A stretch of 63,881 nt of DNA from Candidatus Omnitrophota bacterium (lineage in GTDB: Bacteria; Omnitrophota; Gorgyraeia; Gygaellales; Profunditerraquicolaceae), in the NCBI GenBank assembly GCA_018812825.1, contig JAHJCJ010000052.1, forward strand, positions 1 to 63,881, in the 5' to 3' direction. The notes under the pieces are model-generated. The model worked only from the letters and a program-made list of their open reading frames with translations, made no database searches and was not told where the DNA came from. This document shows, in pieces, positions 7,119 to 63,881 of the stretch (position 1 is the stretch's first letter; each line of letters begins with the position of its first letter). The translations under genes and the position numbers were made by a program.

Positions 7119-7121
7119 AGG

Positions 7122-7152
7122 GTAGACAGTCTACGTAACTCACTGTAAGTAG
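7122..7152 (+). promoter_or_regulatory. 31-nt promoter-like repeat, copy 1 (contains the TAGACAGTCTA palindrome)
   Basis: GTAGACAGTCTACGTAACTCACTGTAAGTAG. About 27 of 31 nt identical to 10820-10850. Fits TAGACA-N17-TAAGTA. Confidence 0.45.
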
Positions 7153-10694: not shown

Positions 10695-10823
10695 GTGGAG
10701 ATAGTTAGGAATCGGAAGCTTTCTGATGCGACAAAGGCAGAACTTGAGAAGCCGCTTATCCCGTATGATGCATGTATAGAAGAGGTGAATAAAAGTTGGG
10801 ATGATGATTTGGAGAAACTGTAG
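10695..10823 (+). CDS. Possible 42-aa small ORF or gene remnant
   Basis: The frame is open from 10665 with no ATG. A GTG at 10695 follows GAAAGG. The stop TAG is part of repeat copy 2. Confidence 0.2.
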   Translation: MEIVRNRKLSDATKAELEKPLIPYDACIEEVNKSWDDDLEKL

Positions 10824-10850
10824 ACAGTCTATATAACTCGCTGTAAATAA
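10820..10850 (+). promoter_or_regulatory. 31-nt promoter-like repeat, copy 2
   Basis: GTAGACAGTCTATATAACTCGCTGTAAATAA. Fits TAGACA-N17-TAAATA. Confidence 0.45.
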
Positions 10851-31760: not shown

Positions 31761-31768
31761 ATAGAGAC

Positions 31769-31802
31769 AGCGACCGTTTTTCTACAAGGGAAAACGGTCG
31801 CT
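31769..31802 (+). repeat. GC-rich palindrome after truA
   Basis: AGCGACCGTTTT / AAAACGGTCGCT 12-bp stem. No T-run follows. Confidence 0.7.
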
Positions 31803-31828
31803 ATCCCTATTTAAATCGAAAAATTTAT

Positions 31829-39400: not shown

Positions 39401-39480
39401 TTAGGGACGGTTCTCAAACCAAAGGAAAACTGTCCCCTTAGAAGGGGGCACTTTAGCTTTGAGTTGAGAACCGTCCCTAA
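39401..39480 (+). repeat. 80-nt palindrome filling the argG-argH gap
   Basis: Perfect 17-bp arms TTAGGGACGGTTCTCAA / TTGAGAACCGTCCCTAA. Inner stem TGTCCCC/GGGGGCA. Confidence 0.8.
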
Positions 39481-48017: not shown

Positions 48018-48257
48018 ATGGCAGATAAAGTACTGAAAGTGGGAGTAAAGAGGGAGAAAGGTTATCTCTATTATATTGACAAGCAGGGTGATGTCTCTTG
48101 TGCGAAGATGGCCAGAGGCTCTAAAAAAGGAGGTAGCCCTAAGAAGGTAGCCAAATGTGGTATCAAAAGAAAAGTAGGCTATCTTTATTTCTTAGATAAG
48201 AAGGGTGATGTCTCTTGTGCTAAAATGAAAAGAGGCGGAAAGAAGAAAAAGAAGTAA
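48018..48257 (+). CDS. Small, highly basic protein made of two ~35-aa tandem repeats
   Basis: K.G.KR..GYLY(Y/F).DK.GDVSCAKM.RG.KK occurs twice. SD AAGGGGG precedes ATG 48018. Confidence 0.65.
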   Translation: MADKVLKVGVKREKGYLYYIDKQGDVSCAKMARGSKKGGSPKKVAKCGIKRKVGYLYFLDKKGDVSCAKMKRGGKKKKK

Positions 48258-48483: not shown

Positions 48484-50115
48484 ATGAATAAAGTCTTTGT
48501 AGTAATTCTATCATTTATTTGCCTGGTTATCTATGCTGGCTACCTGGATAACGGGTTTGTTTTTGATGATAAGATCTTGGTTGAGGAAAACCCGTTGATT
48601 AAATCTGCGCACCTTCTGCCAAATATTTTTAGAACCGGAATATATGACTATTGGGCCGGAATGCAGCCTTATGACCGGATGTATCGGCCGATGCAGATGC
48701 TTTCATATTATCTGGATTATAATCTTTGGGGGCTTAACCCTGCGGGCTTTAGGTTTAGCAATATACTATTACATTTGTTTAATTCCATCCTGGTATTTTA
48801 TCTACTTATTTTAGTTTTTAACTATAAATTACTTGCTGCTGCAAGTAGTATTTTGTTTTTGGCGCATCCAGTGCATATCTCTACGGTGGCGTATATTTCG
48901 GCCCGGGGTGACCTGTTAAGTGCATTTTTTATTTTGGCCTGCTGTGTCTTATTTCTAAAATTTCTGGGTTCAAAAAACTATGCATTCTATTTCTTGAGCA
49001 TCTTTGCAGCAGCTCTTGCGTTTTTAAGCCGGGAGAATGCGTTACTTATAATATTCTTTTTAACACTTATCATTTTATTTTTAGTTAAAAACGGGGCTAG
49101 ATTTAAATACTTATCCGGTTTTTTTGTTTTGTCATTAGTTTATCTAGCGGTAAGATTTATTATTTTTGGCCCGAGCGGGCTGGCAGCTCATACGGATTAT
49201 ATTAAAGGGGCACTTTTACTATTCAATTTTTTTAATATAATCTGTCATTATATCTTATTGTTGCTTTGGCCGGTTAATTTACGCATGTTTAACTCTACTG
49301 TTTTTATTAGCCAATTAAGCATTCCGGCCCTGCTCTTATCCATAGTAGGATTAATTTTGATATTAGCCGTAATATTAAAATGTCAGAAAATTAAACAGCC
49401 TTCTGCGGTGCTTAGTTTTGGTTTATTCTGGTTTTTGCTGGGAATTATACCGGTTTATTTTTATTTTGATGCATATCCGGCTTTAGGAAGGGCGCTTATG
49501 GCAGAAAGCTGGCTTTATTTACCCAGCATTGGATTCTGCGCGGGTTTCGCGTATTTATGTTTATTAAATAAAAGAGGCAAATTAATCATAGTTGCTTGTG
49601 TAGCGATTTTGGGAAGTTTGGTGGCGGTTAATAGGGGTTATTGGCGTAATGATGTAACTTTCTATGAGAGGGCGTTACAGTTTTTACCGCAAGATAGTAT
49701 TATTTTGAGAAATCTGACTACTGCGTATATAGAATCCGGAGATTTTCCAAAGGCTTATGAGGCAATCAAAGAACTTGAGAAATATTACGCGGATACTCCG
49801 GTTATAAATTTGGCTTGGGGCCAATATTATTTTGCCCGGGGTCAGGCAAAAGAAGCGTTAAGCTATTATCAGCGGATATTGAGTAAAAGTTTTTCTAGTA
49901 ACTATTCCATAAGTTTATGTTATGCTAAATTAGGTGATCTTGATAAGGCTATTGCATTTAGCCGGGTGAGTTTTACCCAGAATCCGTTTTTCCAGAAGAA
50001 TATTATACAATTAGCCAGGCTTTATAATAAAACCGGGCAACTAGAGCAGGCAAATAAATATTTACTTTTAGCTAAACAGCTTGACCCAAAGGGTAGGTAC
50101 GTTTTACTTAAATGA
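48484..50115 (+). CDS. Polytopic PMT/ArnT-like glycosyltransferase with C-terminal TPR repeats
   Basis: About 11 hydrophobic helices followed by TPR-like repeats (AYEAIKELEKYY..., ALSYYQRIL...). Confidence 0.65.
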   Translation: MNKVFVVILSFICLVIYAGYLDNGFVFDDKILVEENPLIKSAHLLPNIFRTGIYDYWAGMQPYDRMYRPMQMLSYYLDYNLWGLNPAGFRFSNILLHLFNSILVFYLLILVFNYKLLAAASSILFLAHPVHISTVAYISARGDLLSAFFILACCVLFLKFLGSKNYAFYFLSIFAAALAFLSRENALLIIFFLTLIILFLVKNGARFKYLSGFFVLSLVYLAVRFIIFGPSGLAAHTDYIKGALLLFNFFNIICHYILLLLWPVNLRMFNSTVFISQLSIPALLLSIVGLILILAVILKCQKIKQPSAVLSFGLFWFLLGIIPVYFYFDAYPALGRALMAESWLYLPSIGFCAGFAYLCLLNKRGKLIIVACVAILGSLVAVNRGYWRNDVTFYERALQFLPQDSIILRNLTTAYIESGDFPKAYEAIKELEKYYADTPVINLAWGQYYFARGQAKEALSYYQRILSKSFSSNYSISLCYAKLGDLDKAIAFSRVSFTQNPFFQKNIIQLARLYNKTGQLEQANKYLLLAKQLDPKGRYVLLK

Positions 50116-52994
50116 AAAGCGAAAATATCATTATCCGTGGAGCCAGGGAGCATAATCTTAAGAGCATCAACCTGGATTTGCCGCGCAATAAACTGATTGT
50201 TATAACCGGTTTATCAGGGTCCGGAAAGTCCAGCCTTGCGTTTGATACGATTTATGCCGAAGGCCAGCGCAGGTTTGTAGAGAGCCTCTCCAGCTATGCC
50301 CGGCAGTTCCTAGAGCAGCTGCAGAAACCGGATGTGGATTATATCTCTGGTTTATCCCCGGCGATTGCCATTGAGCAACGTTCTGCCGGAGGCAATCCCC
50401 GTTCAACCGTTGCTACACAAACAGAAATTTATGATTACTTAAGGTTGTTATTTGCCAGGATGGGAAGAGTCCATTGTTATAAATGTGGCCAGTTGATTCA
50501 AAGTCAAAGCGCGCAGGAGATAGTGGAATCAATTATGAGTACCCAGGCAAATAACGATGTGCAGATCCTTGCCGGTTTAATCCAGGGTAAAAAAGGAGTA
50601 CATAAAGATATATTTTTGCAAATTCAAAAATCTGGATTTGTGCGTGCCAGGGTCGATGGTAAAATCTATGAACTGCCCGCAGAGATAAAATTAGCTAGAT
50701 ATAAACTCCACAATATAGAAGTAGTGGTTGATCGTTTGAATGTCAAGCCGGATGTTTTGAAAAGGCTTACGGATTCCGTAGAGACTGCCCTTAAAGTAGG
50801 CAAGGGCACGGTTATTATTGCTAAAGCAGGTGCATACCGGGACTCAATTTTTAGCGAAAAATATGCCTGCGTTAATTGCGGAATAAACTATGCAGAAATT
50901 AACCCGCGAAATTTTTCCTTTAATTCTCCTTATGGAGCTTGTCCTGGATGCAATGGTTTAGGTACTAAACTTGAGTTTGACCCGGATTTAATTATTCCGG
51001 ATAAAAATAAAAGTATTAATGCCGGAGCCCTTGAGCCGTGGAAGCGCGGCGGCAGAGGCTATATTCTTTATTATCGCTGGTTGATACGGGAGTTAAGCCA
51101 CCGCCTGAATTTTTCTTTAGATGAGCCTTTTAAGAAATTACCCAAGTCTGTGCAGAAGGCAATCCTTTATGGCGCAGATGAGTTGATTGGCAATTGGCCA
51201 GAGGGCCATGGTTTAGCTTCCTCTAGCCAAAGCCATAAGCCATTTGAAGGGGTTATCCCGCATTTAGAAAGGCTGTTTCATCAGACAGACAGCGATTATT
51301 TGAAAGAGGAGATCAGCAGGTTCATGTCCAGCCTCCCCTGTCCAGCATGTAAAGGCGCCAGGCTTAAGCCGGAAAGTTTATCCGTGAGGATTAACCAAAA
51401 GAATATTTGGGAGATTACCCGTATGCCCATAAAAGAAGCGATAAATTTCTTTTCCGGCCTGAAATTAACGCAAAAAGAAAAATTAGTGAGTTATCAGGCA
51501 TTAAAAGAAATAACCCAGAAATTGAAGTTTTGCGTTGATGTTGGTCTGGATTATTTAACTTTGGATCGTAAAAGCTCTACTTTGTCCGGTGGAGAGGCAC
51601 AAAGAATACACTTAGCTACGCAGGTTGGTTCTGGGCTGGTGGGAGTTTTATATGTTTTGGATGAACCGAGTATTGGTTTACATCAGCGGGACAATGCAAA
51701 GTTGCTGACTACTTTAAAGGCATTGCGGGATTTAGGCAATACCTTGGTGGTGGTTGAACATGACCAATCTACTATTTTAAGCGCGGATCATATTGTGGAT
51801 TTAGGCCCCGGGGCAGGCAGGCATGGAGGTAAGGTTATTTTTTCCGGCGATAAAGAGGGGCTTCTAAGAAGTAAAGATTCTTTAACTGCAAAATATATCC
51901 GCAAGGATCTTTCGATTCAACCTCCTGCAAATAGGCGCCCCTGGCGGGATAAGAAATATATTGAGATAAAAGGAGCTTCTGAGCATAATCTTAAGAATAT
52001 TGATTTGCGTTTTCCTTTAGGTACTCTTATTTGTGTGACTGGCGTATCAGGTTCAGGTAAATCTACTTTAATTACGGATATACTTTATCCAGCATTGGTT
52101 CAGAAGATTTGTGGTTTTGGCAATCGGAAGCCAAACCATGGCCTCCTGGCCTATCGGTCTAAGGTAAAACCCGGGGCATTTAAAGCCATAAACGGAACGC
52201 AGGAGATTGACCAGGTAATTGTGGTTGACCAGCAGCCAATCGGCAGGACCCCGCGTTCAAACCCGGCAACTTACACCGGGGTATTTGCTCATATAAGAGA
52301 TTTATTCGTCCAGCTTCCGGAGGCGCGCCAGCGGGGTTATAAGCCGGGGAGATTTTCGTTTAATGTTAAAGGCGGCCGATGTGAGTCCTGCGGAGGCGAC
52401 GGAATAAAGAAGATCGAGATGCACTTTTTACCTGATGTATATGTAAAGTGCGAGTTGTGCAAGGGGCTAAGGTTTAATAATGCGACCTTAGAGGTAAAAT
52501 ATAAAGGTAAATCTATAGCAGATGTTTTAGAGATGACTGTTGAGGAGGGTTTGGAGTTGTTCAGTAATATCCCGAGAATAAAAAACACTTTTGGATATTT
52601 AAATGATGTGGGATTAGGCTATATTCAATTGGGCCAGAGTGCCACTACTCTTTCCGGAGGAGAGGCTCAAAGGATAAAACTTTCTTCGGAATTATGCAAA
52701 CGCTCAACCGGAAAAACCCTCTATCTCCTGGATGAGCCAACTACCGGTTTACATTTTGCCGACGTAGCCAGATTAATATCTGTGTTACAGAAATTAGTTG
52801 AACGTAGCAATACTGTTGTGGTGGTTGAGCATAATTTAGAGGTAATCAAATGCGCGGATTATATTATTGACCTGGGCCCTGAGGGCGGGGATAAGGGTGG
52901 AGAGCTTGTCGCTTCCTGTAGCCCGGAAGAGTTGATTAAAATAAACAAATCTTTTACTGCCAAGTTTCTCAGGGAAGCTTTAATAAAAACATGA
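50112..52994 (+). CDS. uvrA: Excinuclease ABC subunit A
   Basis: [50 protein letters not shown] (twice). 960 aa. Confidence 0.96.
51196..51239 (+). repeat. 44-nt palindromic element, in-frame copy in uvrA (forward)
   Basis: GGCCAGAGGGCCATGGTTTAGCTTCCTCTAGCCAAAGCCATAAG, encoding [14 protein letters not shown]. Confidence 0.85.
52108..52151 (-). repeat. 44-nt palindromic element, in-frame copy in uvrA (reverse orientation)
   Basis: The + strand reads TTTGTGGTTTTGGCAATCGGAAGCCAAACCATGGCCTCCTGGCC, encoding [14 protein letters not shown]. Confidence 0.8.
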
Positions 52995-55459
52995 AAAGGG
53001 GAATAACTGGCACGTTAATTTTAACCTTATTTTTAACTTCCTTCTGTTTTGCTCAAGAAAGCCCAAGGGAAGCAGAGCTGCTTTTTATGACCAAGAAAGC
53101 CTATGAGGACGGTTTTTATGAAGTTGCCTTGGGGATGATTGAGAAGTTTCAAAAGGATTTTCCGGATTCCGTTAAAATAAGCGAAGCACGCCTGTTAATG
53201 GGGCAAAGCTATTTTCATCAGGGCCGTTACCTAGAGGCATTAAATACGCTTGAGGCCTTATTGGTTGATCTAAAAGCCGCGAATCTTAAAGATGCCCTTT
53301 ATTTCTGGATCGCGGAGCTGCATTTTAAAGGCAATAATTTTGAAAAAGCCGTTATTTTTTATCAGAAGTTAATCAATGATTTTCCGCAGTCATCTTATGT
53401 TCCGGCAGCATATTATTCATTAGGGTGGTCATTTTCGCAGATGGGTAAATATAGCCAAGCTTTACAAAGCTTAAAGAGTTTGTTGGAGAGGTTCCCTAGT
53501 GAGCCACAGAGTAAAGATGCTGCCTTTAAATTGATCGAGTGTTTATATAATCTCAAAGAGTATTCTGAATTAAAGAATAAGATTAAATCTGTGCTTAAGC
53601 TTTATGCCAATGATACATTGCGCCTGCCGTATCTGTATTTTTATCTGGCGGAGTCCGAATATTATCTGGATTATCTTAATGAAGCAGCTAAAGATTATCT
53701 TAAATCAGCGCAAGCCTTTAAAGATGAAAAGGCTCAAGGCTTGGCAAAGTTAGGATTGAGCTGGTCTTACCTTAAGCTTAAGAGATATGAAGAAGCTGCA
53801 GAGATGTTTGCTGATATTAGGCAAAGCAGCCTGGATAAGAAAAGCCTGGATATTCTTATATTGGGGCAGGCAGTATTAATGTCACAGTCTAACCGGATTT
53901 ATGAAGCAAAAAAGTTATACCAACAACTTATTGATGTTAGCGGCGATCCTTTGATACGCCTTCAGGCGTATATAGGTAAAGCTGATGCGTTTTATAATTT
54001 AGCCGATTATGCCCAGGCGGTTAAGGTATATGAAGAGGGCTTGGAGGATATAGCTAAAACGGACCATCAATCCAGCCAGACAGATGAATTGATTGATAAG
54101 TTGCGTTACAATTTAGGCCTGGCTTATATAAAACAGGGAGCGGTTAAATCTGGGATAGCCGTATTTGAGGATATCGTTGGTAAAAGCGTTGATCCGGCTG
54201 TAAAGGTTGGGGCGCTTTGCCAGATAGGCGATACTTATCAGGATGCGGGAGAATACTTGAAAGCAGAAGAGGTTTACGCAAAGATTCTGAAGCAATTCCC
54301 TGATTCATCTTTCGCGGATTATGCGTTGTATCAAACCGGACTTTCCCAACTAAAAAGATCTGATTACATATCTGCAGTTGTTTCATTTAAGCTCTTGCCA
54401 AAGAATTATCCGCAATCAAAATTTCTTGAGGATGCAATTTATTCTTTAGGGGTATCTTACTTCTATGAGCAGGATTATGGCTTAAGCTGTGAAATTTTAA
54501 CTAAGTTTCAAAATGAGCTTAAAGGCAGCCGGTTGTCTGGACAGGCCATTTTTATGTTGGGGTTAACCTTACTTAATTTAGGTAAAATTGATGAAGCGCT
54601 CAATATTTTTAAGGATATTCTTAGGCAGCATCCTCAAGACAGCGAATTACTGCAGAAGGCGGAATATGAAATTGCCGATTGTTATTATAAGCTGGGTCAG
54701 AAAAAAGAGGCGCTCAGGCGTTTTAAACTCCTGCGAGTTAAATACCCTGATTCGAAGCTTACTCCGGAGATTATGTGGTGGCTGGGTCAATATTATTACC
54801 GTTTGAATGATTTAAACCTCGCGCGTAGGTATTTTAGCTCCTTGGCAAAAGATTTTCCGCATAACAGCCTATCTGGGGATGCATTATATGCTTTAGGTTT
54901 AGTTTTTAGAGATGAGAATAAGCTTGAACTGGCGGTTGATAATCTGAAGATGGCGATTAAATTTAAAGAAGGAGAGTTAAAGACTGAAGCCGCATTAGCC
55001 GTGGCAGATATTTATTTCCAGCAAGGAAGATTTGAAGAAGCCCTTACTGAATATACGCAGATTCTTAAAAATCATCTTGATTTAGGTTTTTTGGTTTTTC
55101 CCAGGATAGCTAAATGTTATTACAAGACGCAAAATTATGAGCAGGCGAAGCTATTTTATCAAAAAGCTTTGGAGTTGATTGATATTAAGGAAGCCAGCGA
55201 TATTCGGTTTAGTTTAGCTGAGGTGTATGAGATTCAAGATGAATTGGATACTGCGATTGCTATGTATCTTAAATTAGCGGGCGATTATAGTGATAATACG
55301 CAGTTATCAATTCGCGCGTTTTTACGCGCTGCAAGGATCTATGAAGACAAAGATGATTTTAAAAGTGCTTTGGGTATATACGAAAGAATTGCACAGAACA
55401 AGGTTGAAGAATCCAAGTTTGCCCAGGAGCGGATTGAGTGGATTAAGGAGATTAAATAA
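52991..55459 (+). CDS. Large secreted TPR-repeat protein (YbgF-like repeats)
   Basis: Signal peptide, then roughly 20 TPR-like units. 4-nt overlap with the uvrA stop. Confidence 0.7.
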   Translation: MKRGITGTLILTLFLTSFCFAQESPREAELLFMTKKAYEDGFYEVALGMIEKFQKDFPDSVKISEARLLMGQSYFHQGRYLEALNTLEALLVDLKAANLKDALYFWIAELHFKGNNFEKAVIFYQKLINDFPQSSYVPAAYYSLGWSFSQMGKYSQALQSLKSLLERFPSEPQSKDAAFKLIECLYNLKEYSELKNKIKSVLKLYANDTLRLPYLYFYLAESEYYLDYLNEAAKDYLKSAQAFKDEKAQGLAKLGLSWSYLKLKRYEEAAEMFADIRQSSLDKKSLDILILGQAVLMSQSNRIYEAKKLYQQLIDVSGDPLIRLQAYIGKADAFYNLADYAQAVKVYEEGLEDIAKTDHQSSQTDELIDKLRYNLGLAYIKQGAVKSGIAVFEDIVGKSVDPAVKVGALCQIGDTYQDAGEYLKAEEVYAKILKQFPDSSFADYALYQTGLSQLKRSDYISAVVSFKLLPKNYPQSKFLEDAIYSLGVSYFYEQDYGLSCEILTKFQNELKGSRLSGQAIFMLGLTLLNLGKIDEALNIFKDILRQHPQDSELLQKAEYEIADCYYKLGQKKEALRRFKLLRVKYPDSKLTPEIMWWLGQYYYRLNDLNLARRYFSSLAKDFPHNSLSGDALYALGLVFRDENKLELAVDNLKMAIKFKEGELKTEAALAVADIYFQQGRFEEALTEYTQILKNHLDLGFLVFPRIAKCYYKTQNYEQAKLFYQKALELIDIKEASDIRFSLAEVYEIQDELDTAIAMYLKLAGDYSDNTQLSIRAFLRAARIYEDKDDFKSALGIYERIAQNKVEESKFAQERIEWIKEIK

Positions 55460-55537
55460 AGTAGTTGACTTATCTCAGTTTATTTATAAAATACATGCAT
55501 AGCCTACCAGCCGGTAGAAGTGGAGGAAGGAGAAAAA

Positions 55538-55744
55538 ATGATCATTGAAATCGGTATCGTTGCAGGTGAAATTTGGCATTACTTGGATCAGTACGGAGAG
55601 GTCAGCCTTTCTGTTTTAGTTAAGGAGATTGAACGCTCCCCTGATAATGTGTTGATGAGTTTAGGCTGGCTTGCCCGCGAAGGACATGTAATTTTAGTTA
55701 AAATTAATAACGATTATCAGATTTCTTTAAGGAAAGATGCCTGA
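55538..55744 (+). CDS. Small winged-helix protein (DUF2582-like)
   Basis: GEIWHYL...LSLGWLAREG pattern. ATG 55538 follows GGAGGAAGGAG. Confidence 0.55.
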   Translation: MIIEIGIVAGEIWHYLDQYGEVSLSVLVKEIERSPDNVLMSLGWLAREGHVILVKINNDYQISLRKDA

Positions 55745-56132
55745 TAGCGATAGAAAAGGAGTGCTTCTTTTTATTGTTTTAGGGACCATAATTGTGGTCG
55801 CTACCTTGAGCACTGTTATACTAAGAATCATACTTAGCCAAACACGTTTGACCCACCATCAAGTAAGCCGGATTCAAAGCCAATATGCTGCGAAGGCGGG
55901 GATAAATTATGCATTAGATAAGCTGCGCAGAAATGATGATGGTAACTGGCTTGCTACAGGAGAATACACAAGGACTATGTATAGGAGTGGCGCAAGTGTA
56001 GCTGGAGATTTTAATGAACCTAACCTTCCGGGCTCTGTTGATAAAGTGGAAATTACTGTGTATGTGCCAGGTTCAGGTATTTCTGGCACGCGTAAAATAA
56101 GCGCTAAAGCTATATACACCTACACTCCGTAA
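55737..56132 (+). CDS. PilX-N-like minor pseudopilin-like protein
   Basis: An N-terminal hydrophobic helix is followed by ...QSQYAAKAGINYAL, resembling the PilX N-terminal domain. No canonical G/F cleavage site. Confidence 0.45.
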   Translation: MPDSDRKGVLLFIVLGTIIVVATLSTVILRIILSQTRLTHHQVSRIQSQYAAKAGINYALDKLRRNDDGNWLATGEYTRTMYRSGASVAGDFNEPNLPGSVDKVEITVYVPGSGISGTRKISAKAIYTYTP

Positions 56133-56399
56133 TTCAACTCACAATTCATCGCGTAAATCTATTATAATCTAAGTAAGTCTATTATAGTTAAGTGGCCATT
56201 ATTTTTATATTTCTACCAGTTTACCCAAGGTAGTTAGTATAGGTAAATTTGCATCAAAAGACAAAATATTGGTCACTAAACTATTTCGTCATAGCTTTAT
56301 TTAGCCGGCTCAATACTAATAGTTTTTTTGTTCCTCCTCGCTTATCTTCGGTAAATCTCTAAACTAAGTAAGTTTGAGTAAGTTTATATAAAAAAACAC

Positions 56400-56428
56400 T
56401 TGACAAAATATGTGTATTATGTTTTAAT
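56400..56428 (+). promoter_or_regulatory. Candidate promoter of the pilus/secretion operon
   Basis: TTGACA (56400-56405), 17-nt spacer, TGtTTTAAT. Confidence 0.4.
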
Positions 56429-56467
56429 TAAATCCACAGTAATTTATAACTAAAGGAAGTAAGGCTT

Positions 56468-56665
56468 ATGTCAAGACTAATAGATATTGATGAGTTAGCG
56501 GAATACCTAAAATTAAAGAAGCAGACTATATATAACTGGTTAAATCAAGGCAAGATTTCTGGAATGAAGGTGGGAGGAGTTTGGAGATTTGACCGCGCTG
56601 ATATTGATATTTGGTTAAAGAGTAAAAAACGGACCTTCCCTTCAAGGGAAACTTCAGGAGAATAG
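56468..56665 (+). CDS. Excisionase-family (MerR-like) helix-turn-helix protein
   Basis: ELAEYLKLKKQTIYNWLNQGKISGMKVGGVWRF. Ends 2 nt before the pilM-like gene. Confidence 0.7.
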   Translation: MSRLIDIDELAEYLKLKKQTIYNWLNQGKISGMKVGGVWRFDRADIDIWLKSKKRTFPSRETSGE

Positions 56666-56667
56666 TT

Positions 56668-58245
56668 ATGAGCTCTTTAGGGGTATATTTTGGGACTAAT
56701 TCTATTGGACTGGCAGAGGTAAATAAAAAAAAGCTGGTAAATAACGTAGTGATTCAGCAGGCAAGTATGTTTTCCGGTGATTTTGAGGAAAAGGTTCCTA
56801 CAGACGTAAAGATAATTGCCCTAATCAAGGATGCTTTGCGTACCAACCATATAAATGTCGACCATGGGTCTATCTGTATTTCCGGACAGGACCTTATTAT
56901 CCGCACTTTTGAAATTCCTAAGTTGCCGAGTAATGAGTTGCAAAGTGCGATTAATTTTGAAGCTAAGAAATACATCCCTTTTAAGCTGGAAGATTTAGTT
57001 TTTAATTTTCAAGTTGAGTTTGATCAAAAGAATAAGTTAAATACCGTATTGTTTGTTGGTATAAAAAAAGAGATACTGGAAAAATATATTTCTATATCCA
57101 AGCAGTTAAATATCAAAATTAACGCTATTGAGTATTCCGCTTTTAGCCTTTTACGTTTTTTAAGGTTGTGCGGAGCAAAAGATAGCGGGGTTGTTGCCAG
57201 TCTTTGTTTTGACCTGAATAATGAGGATGAAATAAATTTCATGGTTTCTGAAAACGGTTTTCCATTTTTTAGCCGGGATATAGTACTTACTTCTGGTCTT
57301 AACGATTTAGACGCTTCTGCCGTTAACGATCAAGTGAAAAAATATGATAAGCTAAAGAACGAAATACGCGTTTCCCAGGATTATTACCGCCGTAAGTTTC
57401 CAGATAAAGGAATTAAGACCCTTTATGTACTTTCTGGTCAGGATATGCGCGAGGACCTTTCTAATTTTTTTGCTGGTTCTGGTATCTTAGCAAAGTTTGT
57501 TGATACCAGCAAGATTTTAGGTAAAGGCGCAACTTACTCTTCAATTTTGGCTAAAAGCGTCGGGGCCGTACTTTTTAAGGAGTTACCTTTAAAAATAAAA
57601 ATCAACCTTTATAATACCCGGCTAAAGGCAGATAGTGTTAAAGGTAAAGAAGATATTTTCGCCTTTATGGAAGGCGTAAAGATTGATTTCAGGGTTATTT
57701 TCTTGGCTATTTTAATATGCGCAGCTACTTTTGGTTATGGTATATACAGGATTCAGCCGGTGCGCGAAGAATTAAACTCTATAAAAGATAAAAGGCCAAA
57801 GGTCGCCTCTGCCTCTGCGGGAGAAGATTATGCGGTTTTAGCTGCCCGGGATAAAAATCTTAAAAAGAAGCTGAATAACTTAGATAATTTGATTAAAAAC
57901 CAGCTTTACGCTACTTACTTTTTGGATATTCTACCACGTGCTTTGCCGGAAGGCGCCTGGCTTACTAAGTTTACTTCTATGAGCAAGGAAGATGGCCGGC
58001 CTGAAGTTATCCTTGAAGGGGAGGCTTATTTAGGCGATAGCGACAAAGAATTTGAAGCAGTAAGCACATTTTTATCCAACCTTAAGGGCAATCAGTTTTT
58101 TTCCAAGAACTTTAAGGAAATAACCATTACTTCTGTTGATCGTAAGACGATCTGGAATAAGAGCGTGGCTATTTTTAGTATTGCTTGTAGAAATTATCCG
58201 GAGAAAAAAAGAGATGATAACGATAGATTTCTTCAGCAAGAATAA
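56668..58245 (+). CDS. pilM: PilM-PilN fusion (GspL-like architecture): actin-like ATPase domain, TM helix, periplasmic domain
   Basis: 525 aa. The N-terminal ~330 aa are PilM-like, a TM helix (VIFLAILICAATFGYGIY) sits near residue 350, and the C-terminal ~170 aa are PilN-like. Confidence 0.65.
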   Translation: MSSLGVYFGTNSIGLAEVNKKKLVNNVVIQQASMFSGDFEEKVPTDVKIIALIKDALRTNHINVDHGSICISGQDLIIRTFEIPKLPSNELQSAINFEAKKYIPFKLEDLVFNFQVEFDQKNKLNTVLFVGIKKEILEKYISISKQLNIKINAIEYSAFSLLRFLRLCGAKDSGVVASLCFDLNNEDEINFMVSENGFPFFSRDIVLTSGLNDLDASAVNDQVKKYDKLKNEIRVSQDYYRRKFPDKGIKTLYVLSGQDMREDLSNFFAGSGILAKFVDTSKILGKGATYSSILAKSVGAVLFKELPLKIKINLYNTRLKADSVKGKEDIFAFMEGVKIDFRVIFLAILICAATFGYGIYRIQPVREELNSIKDKRPKVASASAGEDYAVLAARDKNLKKKLNNLDNLIKNQLYATYFLDILPRALPEGAWLTKFTSMSKEDGRPEVILEGEAYLGDSDKEFEAVSTFLSNLKGNQFFSKNFKEITITSVDRKTIWNKSVAIFSIACRNYPEKKRDDNDRFLQQE

Positions 58246-58744
58246 AAGCAAGATTATAAATGCTGGAATTATATTACTGGCTATATTTGTGGCTCTTTAT
58301 CTGTATAGCATGCAAGGCCAGCAGCTTGTTTCTTTAGAGGAAAGTAAGGATGAGGAAGCAAAAAAGAGCGAGGTAATCGAAAGCTTAAACCGGGTGGAGA
58401 AAAGAATTAACAGCTATAAATCAACTTTTGACAGGAAAGACTTGGGTTCAGTTATTAGTGCAATGACTGATATCGCAAAGGATACCAGGGTCAAGGTAAT
58501 CTCAGTTAAGCCTGGAGTTGAAAAGCAATATGCGGAGTATACAAAGACTTCTTTTTTAATTGTGGTTAGAGTAGCGGACTATCATGCTTTGGGACAGTTT
58601 ATCGGCAAAGTTGAGAATTACAAAGATTTGTTTATTGTGGAAGACGTTAATATTACTATAGATGAAAGCGGTATTAAGACTGATAAAAGGGCAGGAAGAG
58701 ACCTGGATATCAGTTTGAAGATAAGCACAATAACTTGTCTATAA
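58214..58744 (+). CDS. pilO: PilO/GspM-like inner-membrane assembly protein
   Basis: TM helix, coiled coil, then a ferredoxin-like C-domain (ADYHALGQFIGKVEN). ATG 58214 chosen. Confidence 0.6.
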   Translation: MITIDFFSKNKSKIINAGIILLAIFVALYLYSMQGQQLVSLEESKDEEAKKSEVIESLNRVEKRINSYKSTFDRKDLGSVISAMTDIAKDTRVKVISVKPGVEKQYAEYTKTSFLIVVRVADYHALGQFIGKVENYKDLFIVEDVNITIDESGIKTDKRAGRDLDISLKISTITCL

Positions 58745-58745
58745 T

Positions 58746-59219
58746 ATGAGAAGAGCAGGAAAACTTTTAGGGTTTGTGCTTAGTTCAGTGCTACTGGTGA
58801 ATTTTGCGAATATCGTTTTTGCGGATAGCAATAACGATGGGGTAATTTTGCGTCCTGTAATTGAGTATAGCTCTGGGGATTTACGCGATCCATTCAGCGA
58901 CCTATTGCAGTTAGCTATTGAAAAAGAACAAAAAGAAAAAGAGGGGCAATATATCGAGGCGCCACAAGAAAATACTGATCTACAGAGACCTATACTTAGC
59001 TTGAAGAAATTTAAAGTGCAGGGTGTAATTTGGGGAGGCAAGCTTCCACAGGCAATCATTAATAATAAGATATTAGGGGTTGGGGATTCAATTGATGGTG
59101 CTGAAATAGTAAGCATAGAGAAAAAAGGGATTACTTTAAATTTTGCCGGAAGGATGGCTAATCTGGCTACTCCCGGTAATGCCCCTGTTTTAGAAGAAGG
59201 GGATAAGGAGGAAAAATGA
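58746..59219 (+). CDS. PilP/GspC-like periplasmic protein
   Basis: Signal/TM segment, then KVQGVIWGG..PQAIINNKILGVGDSIDGAEIVSI. Confidence 0.5.
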   Translation: MRRAGKLLGFVLSSVLLVNFANIVFADSNNDGVILRPVIEYSSGDLRDPFSDLLQLAIEKEQKEKEGQYIEAPQENTDLQRPILSLKKFKVQGVIWGGKLPQAIINNKILGVGDSIDGAEIVSIEKKGITLNFAGRMANLATPGNAPVLEEGDKEEK

Positions 59220-60751
59220 AAAAGGCTTTCTTGATTTTTGTTTTTATTTTTTCAATCGTATGTGTATTTTTTATCCCGCATCTAAATGCGCAGGCGCAAG
59301 AGCCTCCTATTGGATCTGAGCCAATCATCTCTATGGATTTTCAGGATGTCAGTATAAAGGATGTACTTAAGATGCTTTCTATGCAGTCAGGGATGAATTT
59401 TATTGCCTCTGAGGCAGTGGCTGACAGAAAGGTAACCCTTTATCTCGATAAAGTACCTTTAACCCAGGCAATGGATAAAATCTTTAGCGCAAATAACCTT
59501 TCTTATGAGTTGGACAGCAAGGCCAATATTTTTGTAGTTAAGGATTGGGGGAAAATGGAGATTGAAACAATTACCAAAGTATTTTATTTAAAGCATGCCA
59601 GTGTTTCATCTTCTTCTTTGATGGCAGAAGCTTCAACTAATACAGGTTCCAGTTCTTCCAGTTCTTCCAGTTCTTCTTCTAGTTCTTCATCTGGTTCTTC
59701 AAGCGGCAAATGGAAGTCAGAAAGTGAGTCTGGGATTACCTATTCTGTAAAGAAATTACTTTCTTCTACTGGTTCATTGGTTGAAGATTTTCGCACCAAT
59801 AGCCTGATTGTTACGGATACGCCTGCGCGTATGAAGGTAATTGCCCAGGTAATTACCTCTCTTGATATTGAAATTCCTCAAATTATGCTCGAAGTAGAAA
59901 TGCTTGATGTAAGCAAGAATTCAATAGATAAACTGGGGGTCAAGTTTGGCCAAACGCCTTTTACGGCGGTTATTTATGGTGCTGCTGCAAGTATGGGATT
60001 TCCTTATGGCAGTTGGGGTAAGATCCTTAATCCTGCCAAAGGAAGTATAAATATTAATCCGGGCTCAATTGATAGTGAAGGCACAGCTACAGGCAATCCT
60101 TACCAGGTTCAAATGGATTTTCTAAAAACACAATCTGATACTAAGGTTTTAGCCAGGCCAAGGATTATGACTCTGAATAATGAAACCGCGGAGATTAAGA
60201 TTACTACTGATGAAGCGGTTGGTGAAATTACTGATACTCAAGGCCAGGGCACAGCTTCATCAACTACTACCAGCGCTGAAAGAGTAGAGACTGGTGTGTT
60301 GCTTAGGGTAACTCCTCAAATAAATTCCGATAATGGAGATATCACCATGTTTGTTTATCCTAGCGTAAAAGATGCTACTGCCAGTACTTTTAACACTTCG
60401 TATAAGGATCCTGAAGAGCGTTCTACTAAATCAACAGTAAGAATTAAAGATGGGGAGACTGTGGTTATTGGAGGACTGATCCGTTATGATAGGTCTGAAA
60501 CTTTGACCAAGTTGCCTATCTTAGGGGATATTCCTATAATCGGAGCTATGTTTAGGCATAAAAATAAAGATAAAGACAGGGAAAGAGAGCTTTTGGTATT
60601 TATTACCCCTCATATCGTTAAGAGTGGCCAGGTAAAGTTAGAGCAAATGCAAAGATTTAGCCTGCCTATCCGCGAACAGAGTGCAGTTACTCACGTTAAC
60701 CGTGATTATTTGATTAACTCCAGCTTGAATAATTTCGATAAAAAGCGATAA
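59216..60751 (+). CDS. pilQ: Secretin (PilQ/GspD family) with a poly-Ser linker
   Basis: N0-like domain, then the secretin core VLARPRIMTLNNETAEI...LPILGDIPIIGAMFRHK...LLVFITPHIV. Confidence 0.85.
   Translation: MKKAFLIFVFIFSIVCVFFIPHLNAQAQEPPIGSEPIISMDFQDVSIKDVLKMLSMQSGMNFIASEAVADRKVTLYLDKVPLTQAMDKIFSANNLSYELDSKANIFVVKDWGKMEIETITKVFYLKHASVSSSSLMAEASTNTGSSSSSSSSSSSSSSSGSSSGKWKSESESGITYSVKKLLSSTGSLVEDFRTNSLIVTDTPARMKVIAQVITSLDIEIPQIMLEVEMLDVSKNSIDKLGVKFGQTPFTAVIYGAAASMGFPYGSWGKILNPAKGSININPGSIDSEGTATGNPYQVQMDFLKTQSDTKVLARPRIMTLNNETAEIKITTDEAVGEITDTQGQGTASSTTTSAERVETGVLLRVTPQINSDNGDITMFVYPSVKDATASTFNTSYKDPEERSTKSTVRIKDGETVVIGGLIRYDRSETLTKLPILGDIPIIGAMFRHKNKDKDRERELLVFITPHIVKSGQVKLEQMQRFSLPIREQSAVTHVNRDYLINSSLNNFDKKR
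59646..59706 (+). repeat. Serine-codon microsatellite (AGTTCTTCC-type 9-nt units) in the secretin gene
   Basis: GTTCCAGTTCTTCCAGTTCTTCCAGTTCTTCTTCTAGTTCTTCATCTGGTTCTTCAAGC, encoding GSSSSSSSSSSSSSSSGSSSG. Confidence 0.85.
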
Positions 60752-60753
60752 GA

Positions 60754-62469
60754 ATGCAAAGAGATAAGTATTTAAGATTAGGTGAACTTCTCATAAGAGA
60801 AGGCTTAATTACACCTAGCCAATTAGAAAAGGCGATTAGTGTTCAAAGGCAGGAGTCCGGCCGGTTGGGTGAGATATTAATCAAGTTGGATATGGTAAAA
60901 GAGGACCAGATTGTAGCTGCGCTGGGAAAGCAGCTGAATGTTCCTTTTTTTACTCTTGGTACGGGCATGCTTAAACCAGTGGCTGGCCAAGGGCTAGAGC
61001 ATTTAATCTTGCAGGAGTTTGCGTTTAAGAATTACGTATTGCCTTTATCGCGTACACTCAGGTCACTTACAGTGGCCATGTTCGATCCGCTTGATTTTAT
61101 TCTTATAGATAATTTAAAAAAACTTACGGGTTGTGAAATTAACCCGGTTATTGCCACGCGTTCGGATATAAAGAAGGCAATTGAGGAATTCTACGGGAAG
61201 TCTGCGATGTTGCGGGATGCTGTTGAGTCTAGCTATAATATTGATACAACAACGCAAGAGATGGGAGATGATTTAGGCCAGGAGTTAAGCCTGGACAAGC
61301 TAATTGCACGTGCCGAAGAAGCGCCAGTTGTCAAGATAGTAGATTTGATTATCCGGCAGGCAATTGAAGAAGGTGCCTCGGACATACACATTGAGCCTTT
61401 TAAGGAGAGGACTTCTTTAAGGTACCGAATTGACGGGAAGCTTTGTGAAATACCTCCTCCGGCAAAGCATCTGCATTTGCCGATTGTTTCGCGCGTAAAA
61501 ATTTTAGCAAAAATGGATATTGCGGAGAAACGCCTTCCGCAGGACGGAGCGATTTTAGTGCGTATTAATGACCGGCCGATTGATATCCGAGTTTCGGTTA
61601 TTCCGACTATTTATGGTGAAAAAGCGGTAATGAGGATACTAGATCGTGGCAACAAGGTTTTGGATTTAAGTTCCGCTGGCTTTGATGTCAAGCAGATGGA
61701 GTATGTGCGTAAGGCAATTAATCAGCCGTATGGGTTAGTTTTTGTTACCGGCCCCACCGGAAGCGGAAAATCGACTACTCTTTATGCTATTTTAAGCGAG
61801 ATTAGGAACCCTTCGAAGAATATTGTTACTGTTGAAGACCCCGTAGAATATAAAATGGATGGGATCAATCAGGTTCAGATTAAGCCTGAAGTTGGGCTTA
61901 CATTTGCTGCTGCATTGCGGAGTTTCTTGCGTCAGGATCCGGATATTATGATGGTGGGAGAAGTCCGAGATTTGGAAACAGCCCAAATCTGCATTCGCTC
62001 AGCGCTCACCGGGCATTTGGTTTTAAGTACCCTGCACACTAATGATGCGCCTTCTGCAGCAAATCGTCTTATGGATATTGGTGTTGAGCCGTATATGTTA
62101 GCCCCTTCTTTACTTGTTGTTATTGCTCAGAGATTGATTAGAAAATTATGCCTAGAATGTAAAGAGGCATATGAACCTACTCCTGAACAATTAAGGGGGT
62201 CAAATGTTAAAGTTGAGTTGATTTATCGGCATAAAGGATGCGCTAAATGCAATAACACCGGGTATAGAGGCAGGACTAATATTTGCGAGGTCATGCCTTG
62301 TACCATAGAAATACAGGATTTGATTAATCAAAGGGCTTCTTATCAAAAGATACGGGAGGTAGCTCGGGCGGCAGGGATGCAGACGCTTTATGAATCAGGA
62401 ATTAAGAAGGTTGAGAGCGGGATAACTTCTTTAGAGGAAGTTTTTTCCGTTACATTAGGAGTAGAGTAA
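60754..62469 (+). CDS. pilB: Type IV pilus / T2SS assembly ATPase (PilB/GspE)
   Basis: N-terminal MshEN-like domain, GPTGSGKST Walker A, and the tetra-Cys motif CLEC...CAKC. Confidence 0.9.
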   Translation: MQRDKYLRLGELLIREGLITPSQLEKAISVQRQESGRLGEILIKLDMVKEDQIVAALGKQLNVPFFTLGTGMLKPVAGQGLEHLILQEFAFKNYVLPLSRTLRSLTVAMFDPLDFILIDNLKKLTGCEINPVIATRSDIKKAIEEFYGKSAMLRDAVESSYNIDTTTQEMGDDLGQELSLDKLIARAEEAPVVKIVDLIIRQAIEEGASDIHIEPFKERTSLRYRIDGKLCEIPPPAKHLHLPIVSRVKILAKMDIAEKRLPQDGAILVRINDRPIDIRVSVIPTIYGEKAVMRILDRGNKVLDLSSAGFDVKQMEYVRKAINQPYGLVFVTGPTGSGKSTTLYAILSEIRNPSKNIVTVEDPVEYKMDGINQVQIKPEVGLTFAAALRSFLRQDPDIMMVGEVRDLETAQICIRSALTGHLVLSTLHTNDAPSAANRLMDIGVEPYMLAPSLLVVIAQRLIRKLCLECKEAYEPTPEQLRGSNVKVELIYRHKGCAKCNNTGYRGRTNICEVMPCTIEIQDLINQRASYQKIREVARAAGMQTLYESGIKKVESGITSLEEVFSVTLGVE

Positions 62470-63707
62470 TGCTGAAATTTTATTATATAGCCAGGAATAA
62501 TCTGGGGGCAAAGGAAACTGGGGTAGAAGAAGGGCTGAATCAGGAAGAGGTGGTTAGCAAAATTCAATCCCGGGGATTAATTGTGATCAGTGTTATTCCT
62601 GAGAATACCGAAGCCTTTAACAGTAAAGAAATTAATCCTAACGTTAAAGTTAAATTCAAACAGAAGCGCGATCGGATTACTGGAGCTGATCTTACTCTTT
62701 TCTGCCGGCAGTTATCAACTTTGCTTGGTGCAGGAGTTACTATTCTTAAAAGCCTGGATATAATTTCTAAGCAGGTAGTCAGTAGAAAATTTTATGCGGT
62801 TGTTGTGAATTTGCAGAAAAATATGGAGGCGGGATTAAGTTTTCATGAGGCAATGGTCAAGCATCCAAAAGTTTTTTCGGATCTTTGGGTAAATCTTGTG
62901 GAAAGCGGGGAGGCTAGCGGGAATCTGGCAGTAGTATTAAGCCGTCTTGCCACATACTTAGAAAGGGATGCGGAATTTAGGGGCAAGGTTATCTCGGCCT
63001 TAATTTATCCAGGAATTCTGCTGTTTGCAGGATTAGGTGCATTATTCTTAATGGCAGTAAAAATTGTGCCTACCTTTGCAGAAATATTCAAAGGTTTTAA
63101 TATTACCCTGCCTTTGCTTACTCGGATATTGTTAATGGTGAGCGATTTTCTAAGGTTTAATACGATTGCGATATTCTTAGTTATTGGAGGGATAGTTTTT
63201 ACTTTCAAGAGCTACCTTAAGACTAAGACAGGCAGAAGGAATTTTGAGAGTTTTAAGTTTAAAATGCCTGTATTTGGCGAGTTCTTTATGGCTTTAAATG
63301 TAGAAAGATTTTCTTCTGAAATGTCTACACTTTTGGAATCGGGAGTCCCTATTCTTTATTCTTTGGAAATATCAGAACGCAGTGTGGGGAATTTGGTTAT
63401 GGCGGATATCATTCGTAAGATTAAAGATGATGTGCGCGAGGGTAAGTCTTTACGTGAACCTTTAGAGAAAAGCGCTTTTTTTGACCCTATGTTTATCCAA
63501 ATGGTCAGTATTGGTGAAGAGATCGGAGAGCTTCCGCAGATGTTTAAAAAAATCAATAATTTTTATCAGGATTATTGCGGTGTATTTCTTACGCGTTTTG
63601 TTTCTATGTTTGAGCCTTTTGTTTTGGTTTTTATTGGTGGGATTATAGGGCTTATGATTACAGGTATCTTTTTGCCAATATTTGAGATTTCAAAAATCGG
63701 AGGATAG
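62469..63707 (+). CDS. pilC: Type IV pilus / T2SS platform protein (PilC/GspF)
   Basis: 412 aa, duplicated GspF domains, three TM segments. Confidence 0.88.
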   Translation: MLKFYYIARNNLGAKETGVEEGLNQEEVVSKIQSRGLIVISVIPENTEAFNSKEINPNVKVKFKQKRDRITGADLTLFCRQLSTLLGAGVTILKSLDIISKQVVSRKFYAVVVNLQKNMEAGLSFHEAMVKHPKVFSDLWVNLVESGEASGNLAVVLSRLATYLERDAEFRGKVISALIYPGILLFAGLGALFLMAVKIVPTFAEIFKGFNITLPLLTRILLMVSDFLRFNTIAIFLVIGGIVFTFKSYLKTKTGRRNFESFKFKMPVFGEFFMALNVERFSSEMSTLLESGVPILYSLEISERSVGNLVMADIIRKIKDDVREGKSLREPLEKSAFFDPMFIQMVSIGEEIGELPQMFKKINNFYQDYCGVFLTRFVSMFEPFVLVFIGGIIGLMITGIFLPIFEISKIGG

Positions 63708-63710
63708 TTA

Positions 63711-63739
63711 TTGACAATTTTGAGAAGCGGCTGTAAAAT
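63711..63739 (+). promoter_or_regulatory. Promoter of the pilin gene
   Basis: TTGACA, 17-nt spacer, TAAAAT, then SD AAAGGAGGAG. Confidence 0.55.
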
Positions 63740-63770
63740 ACTTCACAGAACAGTAAAAAGGAGGAGTAAA

Positions 63771-63881
63771 ATGAGAAAAGGTTTTACGCTTATCGAATTA
63801 ATTGTGGTTATCATTATCGTTGGTATCTTGGCGTCTGTAGGTATGACGCAGTATACTAAAGTAGTGGAGAAAGGCCGTGCT
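63771..63881 (+). CDS. Type IV pilin / pseudopilin, N-terminal fragment (runs off the window)
   Basis: MRKGFTLIELIVVIIIVGILASV is a prepilin cleavage/methylation motif. Not in the ORF track because it is truncated. Confidence 0.85.
   Translation, partial: MRKGFTLIELIVVIIIVGILASVGMTQYTKVVEKGRA

Follow-up and report, generated by a model that had tools for sequence, protein, structure and literature searches.

A 42-nucleotide palindromic repeat family of Candidatus Omnitrophota that occurs in frame inside uvrA, asd and many other genes

Introduction

Palindromic repeats that lie within bacterial genes are an already known phenomenon. The Rickettsia palindromic elements (RPEs; Ogata et al. 2000, Science 290:347, as summarized in PMC10969869 and PMC3733652) are palindromic repeats inserted in frame in many genes, and Di Nocera et al. 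(2013; PMC3733652) described intragenic copies of repetitive extragenic palindromes (REPs), many of them in repair genes; each uvrA of Opitutus terrae was hit twice, and so was the uvrA of Thioalkalivibrio. Here we analyze a stretch of 63,881 nucleotides of a Candidatus Omnitrophota bacterium (contig JAHJCJ010000052.1 of assembly GCA_018812825.1; this whole stretch is referred to as the window), in which three copies of a palindromic element are found, two in uvrA and one in asd. These three sequences belong to a short palindromic repeat family specific to Candidatus Omnitrophota. The family is new and it departs from the known cases in its two-hairpin unit of 14 codons, its head-to-tail arrays, its mostly intragenic and phylum-wide occurrence and its nucleotide-level conservation inside a housekeeping gene. 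A full-text search of PubMed Central papers and bioRxiv preprints returned no description of such a repeat in Omnitrophota or Omnitrophica.

As far as RPEs are portrayed in the above sources, they resemble the Omnitrophota repeat in being lineage-specific palindromic repeats that lie in frame in many unrelated functional genes, add a peptide without destroying the protein, and hit some genes twice. By the same description they are set apart from it, since RPE-1 is about 100-150 bp long and adds a longer peptide, whereas the Omnitrophota unit has 42 nt (14 amino acids), belongs to another phylum and is read in five frames; moreover, about 70% of its copies are intragenic, compared with roughly half or less reported for RPEs in PMC10969869. 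In-frame insertion into unrelated functional genes was thus found in both, which we regard as a resemblance in behavior and not as family membership.

The REPs of the GTAG and CGTC types (PMC3733652) are likewise short stem-loops, which form sub-families by compensatory changes of the stem and occur as singletons, dimers and clusters. Some of their copies are present in DNA repair genes (uvrA twice, recBCD, uvrD and polA), as are those of the Omnitrophota family (UvrA at four sites, RecX and RecQ). The size and number typical of REPs, i.e. a stem-loop of 20-40 bp in many copies, were also found here, 42 nt being slightly above the usual range. On the other hand, the Omnitrophota element has the tag AYAG, with GTAG or GCAG in only 9 of about 81 copies, it has two hairpins instead of one, its head-to-tail arrays represent a rare type among REPs, and its copies are mostly intragenic, whereas REPs are mostly extragenic (PMC3733652). 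Assignment to the GTAG REPs was rejected, as the GTAG/GYAG tag, the flanking of a RAYT gene and the extragenic location do not apply to the 42-nt element, and so was assignment to the CGTC REPs (CGTC tag, 8-9-bp stem, 4-5-nt loop), as the column profile has no CGTC at either end. O. terrae and the Omnitrophota are both placed in the Planctomycetes-Verrucomicrobia-Chlamydiae (PVC) superphylum.

Results

Three copies of one element in uvrA and asd

The window uvrA (positions 50112-52994, forward strand, 960 amino acids) was taken from the ORF listing and matches the UvrA structures 9gxk and 2r6f over its full length (E=0), while asd, encoding aspartate-semialdehyde dehydrogenase (29914-31071, forward strand), matches the PDB entries 2gyy and 8juo. 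An 18-mer of the element, searched with at most 3 mismatches, gave three matches in the window against 0.14 expected, all of them corresponding to the three copies (asd 30314-30357 and uvrA 51196-51239 on the forward strand, uvrA 52108-52151 on the reverse strand). A 27-mer hit the same three places (0.02 expected), and the repeat finder called them D10, I1 and I2. The original prediction, made from the letters of the window, had proposed two copies in opposite orientations in uvrA and a third insertion, and both proposals were confirmed, the latter by the asd copy at 30311-30356, which the same searches retrieved. The peptides that it quoted for uvrA are correct and do differ between the two orientations. 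Its copy length of 44 nt needs correction: the element is real, but the conserved span of the window copies is 46 nt and the DNA missing from empty alleles amounts to exactly 42 nt. Because AYA borders both ends, the register of the insert is uncertain by 2-3 nt. The prediction also counted uvrA among essential genes; it is a repair gene that is not strictly essential.

The forward uvrA copy, at what we call site B (51193-51238, forward strand, frame same/0), encodes a 14-residue peptide. Empty-versus-filled alignment with loci L013, L076 and L155 places the 42 nt missing from empty alleles at 51195-51236; the first hairpin (SL1) spans 51196-51207 and the second (SL2) 51209-51235. This copy appears length-neutral compared with distant UvrAs from PDB, in agreement with its predicted location in a variable segment, whereas compared with close Omnitrophota orthologues it is a clean insertion of 14 residues. 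The reverse copy, at site C (52109-52154, reverse strand, frame opp/0), also encodes 14 residues and was delimited by empty-versus-filled alignment with L076 and L068 (42 nt missing from empty alleles, 52110-52151; SL1, 52140-52151; SL2, 52112-52138). It is a clean 14-residue insertion both with respect to solved UvrA structures, as seen from the gap of that length in the alignment with 9gxk, and with respect to about 110 of the 120 closest orthologues. The asd copy (30311-30356, forward strand, frame same/0) encodes RPEGRGLASGSQSH between KKH and KGIIANPNC; its 42-nt insert spans 30313-30354, with SL1 at 30314-30325 and SL2 at 30327-30353, and it is documented by short and long asd alleles, by the empty allele of L153 and by the conservation of synonymous sites (cf. 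below).

The AlphaFold2 model of the window UvrA, built from a 53-sequence alignment, was poor (mean predicted local distance difference test score [pLDDT] of 58.7) and depicted both inserts as coil with pLDDT <50, like many other segments, so it offers no usable support for their surface exposure. No Rfam 15 family matched the window at the gathering score.

The unit is composed of two hairpins whose pairing is preserved

In a stack of 81 copies, conservation extends from -13 to +32 relative to the pattern start and drops to background level beyond. The consensus is 5'-AYA GGCC-AGAA-GGCC RTGGTTTGGCT-TCCNAT-AGCCAAAGCC-3', usually followed by another AYA, and the unit of 42 nt (14 codons) comprises AYA, SL1 (GGCC-AGAA-GGCC), R and SL2 (TGGTTTGGCT...AGCCAAAGCCA), the latter being laid out as TGGTTTGGCT, the loop TCCNAT and AGCCAAA-G-CCA, with YA(R) usually next. 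Either strand folds into SL1, a hairpin of 4-6 bp, and SL2, a bulged hairpin of 10 bp; for the consensus as DNA, both form on both strands with -13.3 kcal/mol (z = -4.8 and -4.5). Among the window copies, those in asd and at site C of uvrA fold well (z = -3.3 for site C), whereas the site B copy has an A.C mismatch in SL2 and folds no better than shuffled sequences (z = -0.8).

Pairing is maintained through compensatory changes. SL1, which was unconstrained by the search, occurs as GGCC/GGCC, GGTT/AACC, GGTC/GACC, GGAC/GTCC and GGCT/AGCC, and in a sample in which SL2 was left free, its pairs changed from TA to GC, from GC to CG and from TA to CG. Over 93 distinct copies, pairing holds in 96% of the cells, and in 7 pairs both sides have changed; none of 500 shuffles matches these values, and slid registers collapse. 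Mismatches were too few for the asymmetry of G.T versus A.C to indicate which strand folds. Furthermore, position -12 covaries with +2 (C-G in 40 copies, T-A in 33, other in 8), and the internal RT at +2 and +3 is complementary to the AY at -13/-12 and to the AY at +29/+30. Where sites are orthologous, the AY on the 5' side never varies and that on the 3' side drifts, so the constrained unit probably spans -13 to +28. The 5' tag at -13 to -10, read in about 81 copies, is ACAG in 24, ATAG in 14, ATTG in 6, GTAG in 5 and GCAG in 4, its first base being A in 52 and G in 14. AYA is found on both sides of the copies, with the same Y in 50 of 81, and empty sites have RYA once.

Tandem units abut head to tail with a period of 42 nt and no spacers, and arrays reach five units (L107, 143-355). 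Four units are present at L152 (4603-4772), and the UvrA orthologue P0043 (1017 amino acids) carries about six units over its sites A, B and C. A partial extra SL1 comes after about 15-20 of the 121 solo copies. Two other element classes were considered and rejected, namely (i) a miniature inverted-repeat transposable element, as the ends GGCCAGAAGG... and ...AGCCAAAGCC have only GGC/GCC in common when inverted and there are no terminal inverted repeats of ~15-30 bp, and (ii) a CRISPR array, as units abut at 42 nt without spacers and most copies are solitary and inside genes.

The family is spread over the phylum

One genome per species, for 185,579 species, was scanned with the exact 29-nt pattern CCRTGGTTTRGCTTCNNNNNGCCAAARCC, which yielded 82 matches at 75 loci of 48 assemblies, while about 0.03 matches were expected by chance according to our calculation. 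Of the 75 loci, 65 bear the label Candidatus Omnitrophota or Omnitrophica, and several of the ten others carry genes orthologous to Omnitrophota loci. A scan of metagenomes with the pattern AGGCCAGAAGGCCRTGG-N21-CCAYA, anchored on the first hairpin and the 3' end and leaving SL2 free, gave 74 matches in 71 contigs, and SL2 was present in all 74. With nhmmer, 214 matches were obtained in 1.09 Mb of collected DNA. A scan of viral contigs gave no copy.

Since the window and most of the loci come from metagenome assemblies, we also considered an assembly artefact, a contaminant or an adapter. Nothing specific favors such an origin, the same in-frame insertions occur at the same codons in independent assemblies from different projects, the copies vary and do so with compensatory changes, and they are confined to one phylum; the chance that the element is artefactual is next to negligible.

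Filled and empty sites in orthologous uvrA genes

The 120 closest homologues of the window UvrA are 77-92% identical to it, and every named one is from Omnitrophota. Their lengths cluster at 930-932, 944-946, 959-960, 973 and 1017 residues, that is, in steps of 14. In the orthologue alignment that the original prediction had proposed as a check, the element peptides are absent from the PDB UvrAs and from most of the close orthologues (lengths of 931, 945, 959, 973 and 1017 residues). Insertions were found after residue 211 (site A, 6 carriers), after residue 361 (site B, 8 carriers, the first window copy), after residue 666 (site C, 8 carriers, the second window copy and always reverse) and after residue 683 (site D, 1 carrier). 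Sites A and B may hold 2-3 units, and the majority of orthologues are empty. Presence/absence polymorphism at these exact sites, which had been anticipated, was seen at the DNA level, as syntenic empty alleles (L076, L013, L068 and L155) differ from filled ones by exactly 42 nt; in element orientation, the empty sequence is ..GGT-AGT|AAGCC.. for site B and ..CCT-GTA|AATC.. for site C. On a distance tree the carriers are scattered: by parsimony, 6 changes are needed for the 6 carriers of site A, 7 for the 8 carriers of site B and 8 for the 8 carriers of site C, although these counts are only indicative as the tree is a crude one (unweighted pair group method with arithmetic mean, UPGMA). Of the suggestion that the family is highly active or numerous, the second part holds (48 assemblies), while high activity might be read from this patchy distribution only.

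The borders of filled sites are of more than one kind. At L154, site A is bordered by a direct repeat of 11-12 nt (TAAGCCGCAAG) and site B by ATAAGCC, site D of L155 is bordered by about 11 nt, and native targets look like the 5' end of the element, AYAGGCCAGAAG. Such longer repeats would be expected if the element spread without a dedicated transposase, by microhomology template switching or by short-patch gene conversion in which other copies, above all arrays, serve as donors for native sequences resembling its 5' end, with slippage then resizing the arrays. The head-to-tail arrays of exact 42-nt period and the partial SL1 behind some solo copies would fit this mechanism, and so would the homogenized synonymous sites of asd (cf. 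below), as they are the expected product of gene conversion. However, most solo copies have only AYA(R) in common with their 3' flank, site C is without a long flanking repeat, and microhomology alone leaves unexplained both the conservation of the two hairpins and the covariation between -12 and +2. Besides, a stretch of 42 nt is short for homologous recombination to act on. We consider copying of this kind a rather unlikely explanation for the family.

Location in genes and use of reading frames

Of 92 strong full-length copies (genome-scan loci and the window), 64 lie deep inside ORFs of at least 150 amino acids, 12 more near an ORF end and 16 in a short ORF or none. The corresponding numbers of copies deep in such ORFs are 50 of 74 in the metagenome scan and 139 of 197 in all collected DNA. 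As a control, 79% of random 46-nt windows from the same loci fall deep in ORFs, compared with 68-71% of the copies, and therefore the element is hardly depleted from coding sequence. Its hosts comprise 47 unrelated families, with annotated members such as RecX, RecQ, IF-2, ribonucleotide reductase, ETF-alpha, CheW, a PLD enzyme, O-antigen ligase, an RRM protein, an outer-membrane efflux protein and a phosphate-binding protein, and the insertion points are mostly between or outside Pfam domain envelopes.

Five frames are used, i.e. same/0 (27 copies, typical peptide RPEGRGLASDSQSH), opp/2 (18 copies, ALAIGSQTTALWP), opp/0 (12 copies, a typical peptide of 13 residues), same/2 (5 copies, GQKAVVWLPIAKA) and opp/1 (2 copies, LWLxEAKPRPSG). 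The sixth contains TAG and has essentially no genic use, with a single doubtful case among 195 in which the frame is open on either side of an in-frame stop. Length variants that are not multiples of three number 6 among the 52 copies located outside genes or at their edges and 0 among the 139 inside genes (p = 3e-4). The census proposed along with the original prediction thus revealed a numerous, phylum-wide family whose genic copies are all 3n in length and stop-free. Its further idea, selection for frame-neutral insertion, stands in part: the unit has 42 nt in coding and non-coding copies alike and frame neutrality is therefore a property of the family, whereas selection against stop-frame and indel variants is visible. 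We estimate the chance of a GC-rich 42-mer being open in five frames at ~0.1, so this is not improbable in itself.

The yeast mitochondrial GC clusters and 'byp' elements are short mobile hairpins that invade coding sequence, and byps are skipped by the ribosome. The 42-nt element differs from byps in being translated, as indicated by genes containing neither stop-frame nor non-3n copies, and ribosomal bypass was rejected on the same ground.

When orthologues are collapsed, 18 copies point the same way as the host gene and 23 the opposite way, which is balanced, and the five open frames are used unequally (14/4/9/2/12, p = 0.012). This unevenness, together with the similar hydrophilic cores of the two commonest frames (G-L-A-S-x-S-Q-S and A-L-A-I-G-S-Q-T), would be compatible with a protein-level module, that is, a selected 14-residue loop acquired repeatedly by different proteins. 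The likeness of the cores arises, however, because SL2 is palindromic, and the frame census contradicts such a module, as five frames in two orientations give unrelated peptides; what is more, ~30% of the copies are outside genes, nucleotide conservation exceeds what the encoded peptide would call for, and the hosts are functionally unrelated. We judge it highly improbable that the element is selected as a peptide. The PARCEL repeats, as far as PMC2996958 describes them, are similar in that they are palindromic coding repeats readable both ways with similar peptides (cf. ..GLASxSQS.. in same/0 and ..ALAIGSQT.. in opp/2), but they occur as tandem repeats within genes for surface proteins of Mollicutes and protists and not as dispersed single insertions in housekeeping enzymes.

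Synonymous conservation of the element in asd

Among the 120 closest Asd homologues, ~75 have a short allele (..DV-KKH-KGIIANPNC) and ~40 a long one (..PIRNWLLxKKH-[RPEGRGLASxSQSH]-KGII..), some of the long alleles containing two units. The copy is nearly fixed in the long-allele clade, and the empty allele reads AAAAAGCAT|AAGGGG. Synonymous sites were compared in six long-allele asd genes, five of which had been retrieved by protein similarity and not by DNA pattern; this set replaced pattern-selected loci, whose identity at orthologous sites is biased by ascertainment. Within the element, 12% of pairwise comparisons between codons for the same amino acid show a difference, versus 53% in the rest of asd, while amino acid identity is alike (81% and 80%, respectively). 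The nucleotides of the element are therefore held or homogenized beyond the needs of the protein.

This finding bears on the possibility that the element is a host-selected nucleic acid signal, i.e. a structured DNA or RNA site that would be bound by a conserved Omnitrophota factor (for example in nucleoid organisation, repair/recombination or mRNA processing) and kept by purifying selection wherever it is located. Pairing kept through compensatory changes, a sequence near-identical over 48 species-level genomes and the near fixation of the asd copy in its clade point in the same direction. Yet the element is patchy even among orthologues that are ~90% identical, most UvrA and Asd orthologues are without it, its sites are scattered in unrelated genes, and it forms arrays of 2-5 units as well as partial units. 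In addition, the balanced orientation speaks against a role at the mRNA level, and the window uvrA contains a copy, at site B, with a mismatched and weakly folding SL2. Such a signal seems unlikely to us, although neither it nor the copying without a transposase discussed above is mutually exclusive with a mobile element, as both would be compatible with one.

Two further features of asd were observed. At 30272-30312 of the window (asd residues ~120-133), the long allele has a separate extra segment of ~8 amino acids (..NLIRNWLLV..) between DV and KKH that is missing from short alleles; in a few orthologues the segment is present together with a different 10-residue filler (SGSPDISNGV) but without the element. 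At 30999-31071, the asd ORF extends ~20 codons beyond the usual C-terminus, and it shares 73 nt with the truA-like ORF that follows, compared with an overlap of ~24 nt in related loci.

A RAYT-like gene and a second repeat

As a working model for mobilization we used the REP/RAYT systems (REPtron, TIRtron) and the IS200/IS605 elements, in which an HUH tyrosine transposase, present as one gene per genome, recognizes single-stranded hairpin repeats. In IS608, the cleavage and target sites are read through base pairing with an internal guide, and a comparable feature of the 42-nt element is its internal RT (+2, +3), which covaries with the AY at -13/-12 and +29/+30. As in REP/RAYT systems, the Omnitrophota possess a conserved RAYT-like gene. 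Y1/RAYT probes matched none of the first 1423 ORFs and later retrieved one RAYT-like ORF of 223 amino acids (L118, 7605-8276; Pfam Y1_Tnp, E = 3e-14; motifs HVH, RYIERNPV and WPWSS); others are located at L156 (6001-6708) and L157 (4001-4675). Homologues, 63-88% identical, form at least 120 protein clusters, the named ones being all from Omnitrophota and most being on a single contig each, and in two lineages the gene lies downstream of an ORF of ~1300 amino acids. These sequence data suggest a vertically inherited, single-copy gene and not a hopping insertion sequence.

In every context examined (L118, L156 and L157-L166), this gene is flanked by inverted copies of another repeat, AAATAG-GGACAGCGACC..., which lie at 7499-7515 and 8278-8294 in L118. 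In contrast to the 42-nt family, the GGACAGCGACC repeat is extragenic in all eight occurrences (0 of 8 in ORFs). No 42-nt element was detected within 4 kb of RAYT-like genes in the three distinct genomic contexts examined, so the resemblance to REP/RAYT systems does not extend to a genomic link between gene and element. The sole feature common to both repeats is the motif ATAG-G at the 5' end, which we treat as a lead and not as evidence. The GGACAGCGACC family is also represented in the window, where the arms of a near-perfect palindrome just after the truA-like ORF (31757-31814, TTAAATAGAGACAGCGACCGTTTT-N10-AAAACGGTCGCTATCCCTATTTAA) belong to it.

Other features of the window

Behind uvrA (52991-63881), a large TPR protein and a type IV pilus/secretin cluster (pilM/N/O, secretin, T2SSE/F) follow, in the same order as in L076, L154 and related Omnitrophota contigs, while a lysine/arginine biosynthesis block lies upstream of the uvrA region. 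A long inverted repeat at 39401-39480 (TTAGGGACGGTTCTCAAACC...; 39-nt arms, 85% complementary, 2 nt apart) is unrelated to the 42-nt element. A 35-nt direct repeat with a short palindrome inside (7117-7151 and 10815-10849, 83% identical, AAAGGGTAGACAGTCTACGTAACTCACTGTAAGTA) may represent another small repeat family, and a 61-nt direct repeat (48059-48119 and 48176-48236, 79% identical, 117 nt spacing), just upstream of a TPR-type ORF starting at 48484, may be an internal protein repeat.

Discussion

The findings described above led us to propose, with a probability of about 0.65, that the element is a mobile palindromic repeat similar to REPs and RPEs that is tolerated in coding loops. According to this proposal, it would be selfish, non-autonomous DNA, copies of which are added to the genome and probably lost again through slippage between the flanking AYA repeats. 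The hairpins would be what the copying machinery recognizes, which would explain why their pairing is kept by compensatory changes, and a precedent for such machinery is offered by HUH tyrosine transposases of the RAYT/IS200 type, which act on hairpins of single-stranded DNA. With a unit of 14 codons that can be read through in five frames, most insertions into genes would leave the protein untruncated, and selection would purge the stop-frame, frameshifted and structurally intolerable copies. The survivors would form extra Gly/Ser/Pro-rich loops in linkers and surface segments. The action of such a filter would account for the few recurrently filled sites of uvrA (A, B, C and D), of which the window gene has B and C filled. 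The act of transposition, its enzyme and the contributions of gain, slippage loss and recombination to the patchiness are steps that we infer.

Several observations weigh against this proposal: (i) no transposase is linked to the element, and the only Y1 transposase family in ~1.1 Mb of collected DNA is flanked by an unrelated repeat; (ii) the element is without terminal inverted repeats, and a 3-nt target-site duplication would be indistinguishable from insertion beside an AYA target; (iii) the patchiness among UvrA orthologues, judged from a UPGMA tree only, could be produced by recombination or repeated loss instead of repeated insertion; and (iv) the synonymous conservation in asd is unexpected for inert selfish remnants and would need turnover, gene conversion or a function. 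A more specific, and in our opinion doubtful, scenario is that of an orphan hairpin element that is kept at the nucleotide level even in core genes and serviced in trans by the RAYT-like HUH enzyme of the phylum, encoded by a single-copy and vertically inherited gene, or by another conserved factor. Its sites would be chosen by guide-like pairing of the target AY with the internal RT, and the outcome would be a long-term association of the REP/RAYT type, lodged mainly in coding sequence, in which loops of 14 residues would be made and erased time and again at a small set of recurring positions in repair and housekeeping proteins.

After the RPEs and the scattered intragenic REPs, the family represents a second large and clear case of a selfish-looking palindromic repeat that resides mainly inside genes, and it comes from a poorly known, uncultivated phylum. 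For the study of Omnitrophota sequences, it provides a compact signature by which contigs of the phylum can be recognized; at the same time it may break metagenome assemblies, and the 14-residue length polymorphisms that it creates in marker and housekeeping genes (UvrA, Asd, IF-2, RecQ and ribonucleotide reductase) can upset alignments and gene calling. With one 14-codon unit, five usable frames and many filled and empty orthologous sites, the tolerance of proteins to loop insertion becomes testable, and in the same system it can be tested whether HUH enzymes or recombination copy such repeats and why their nucleotides stay conserved.

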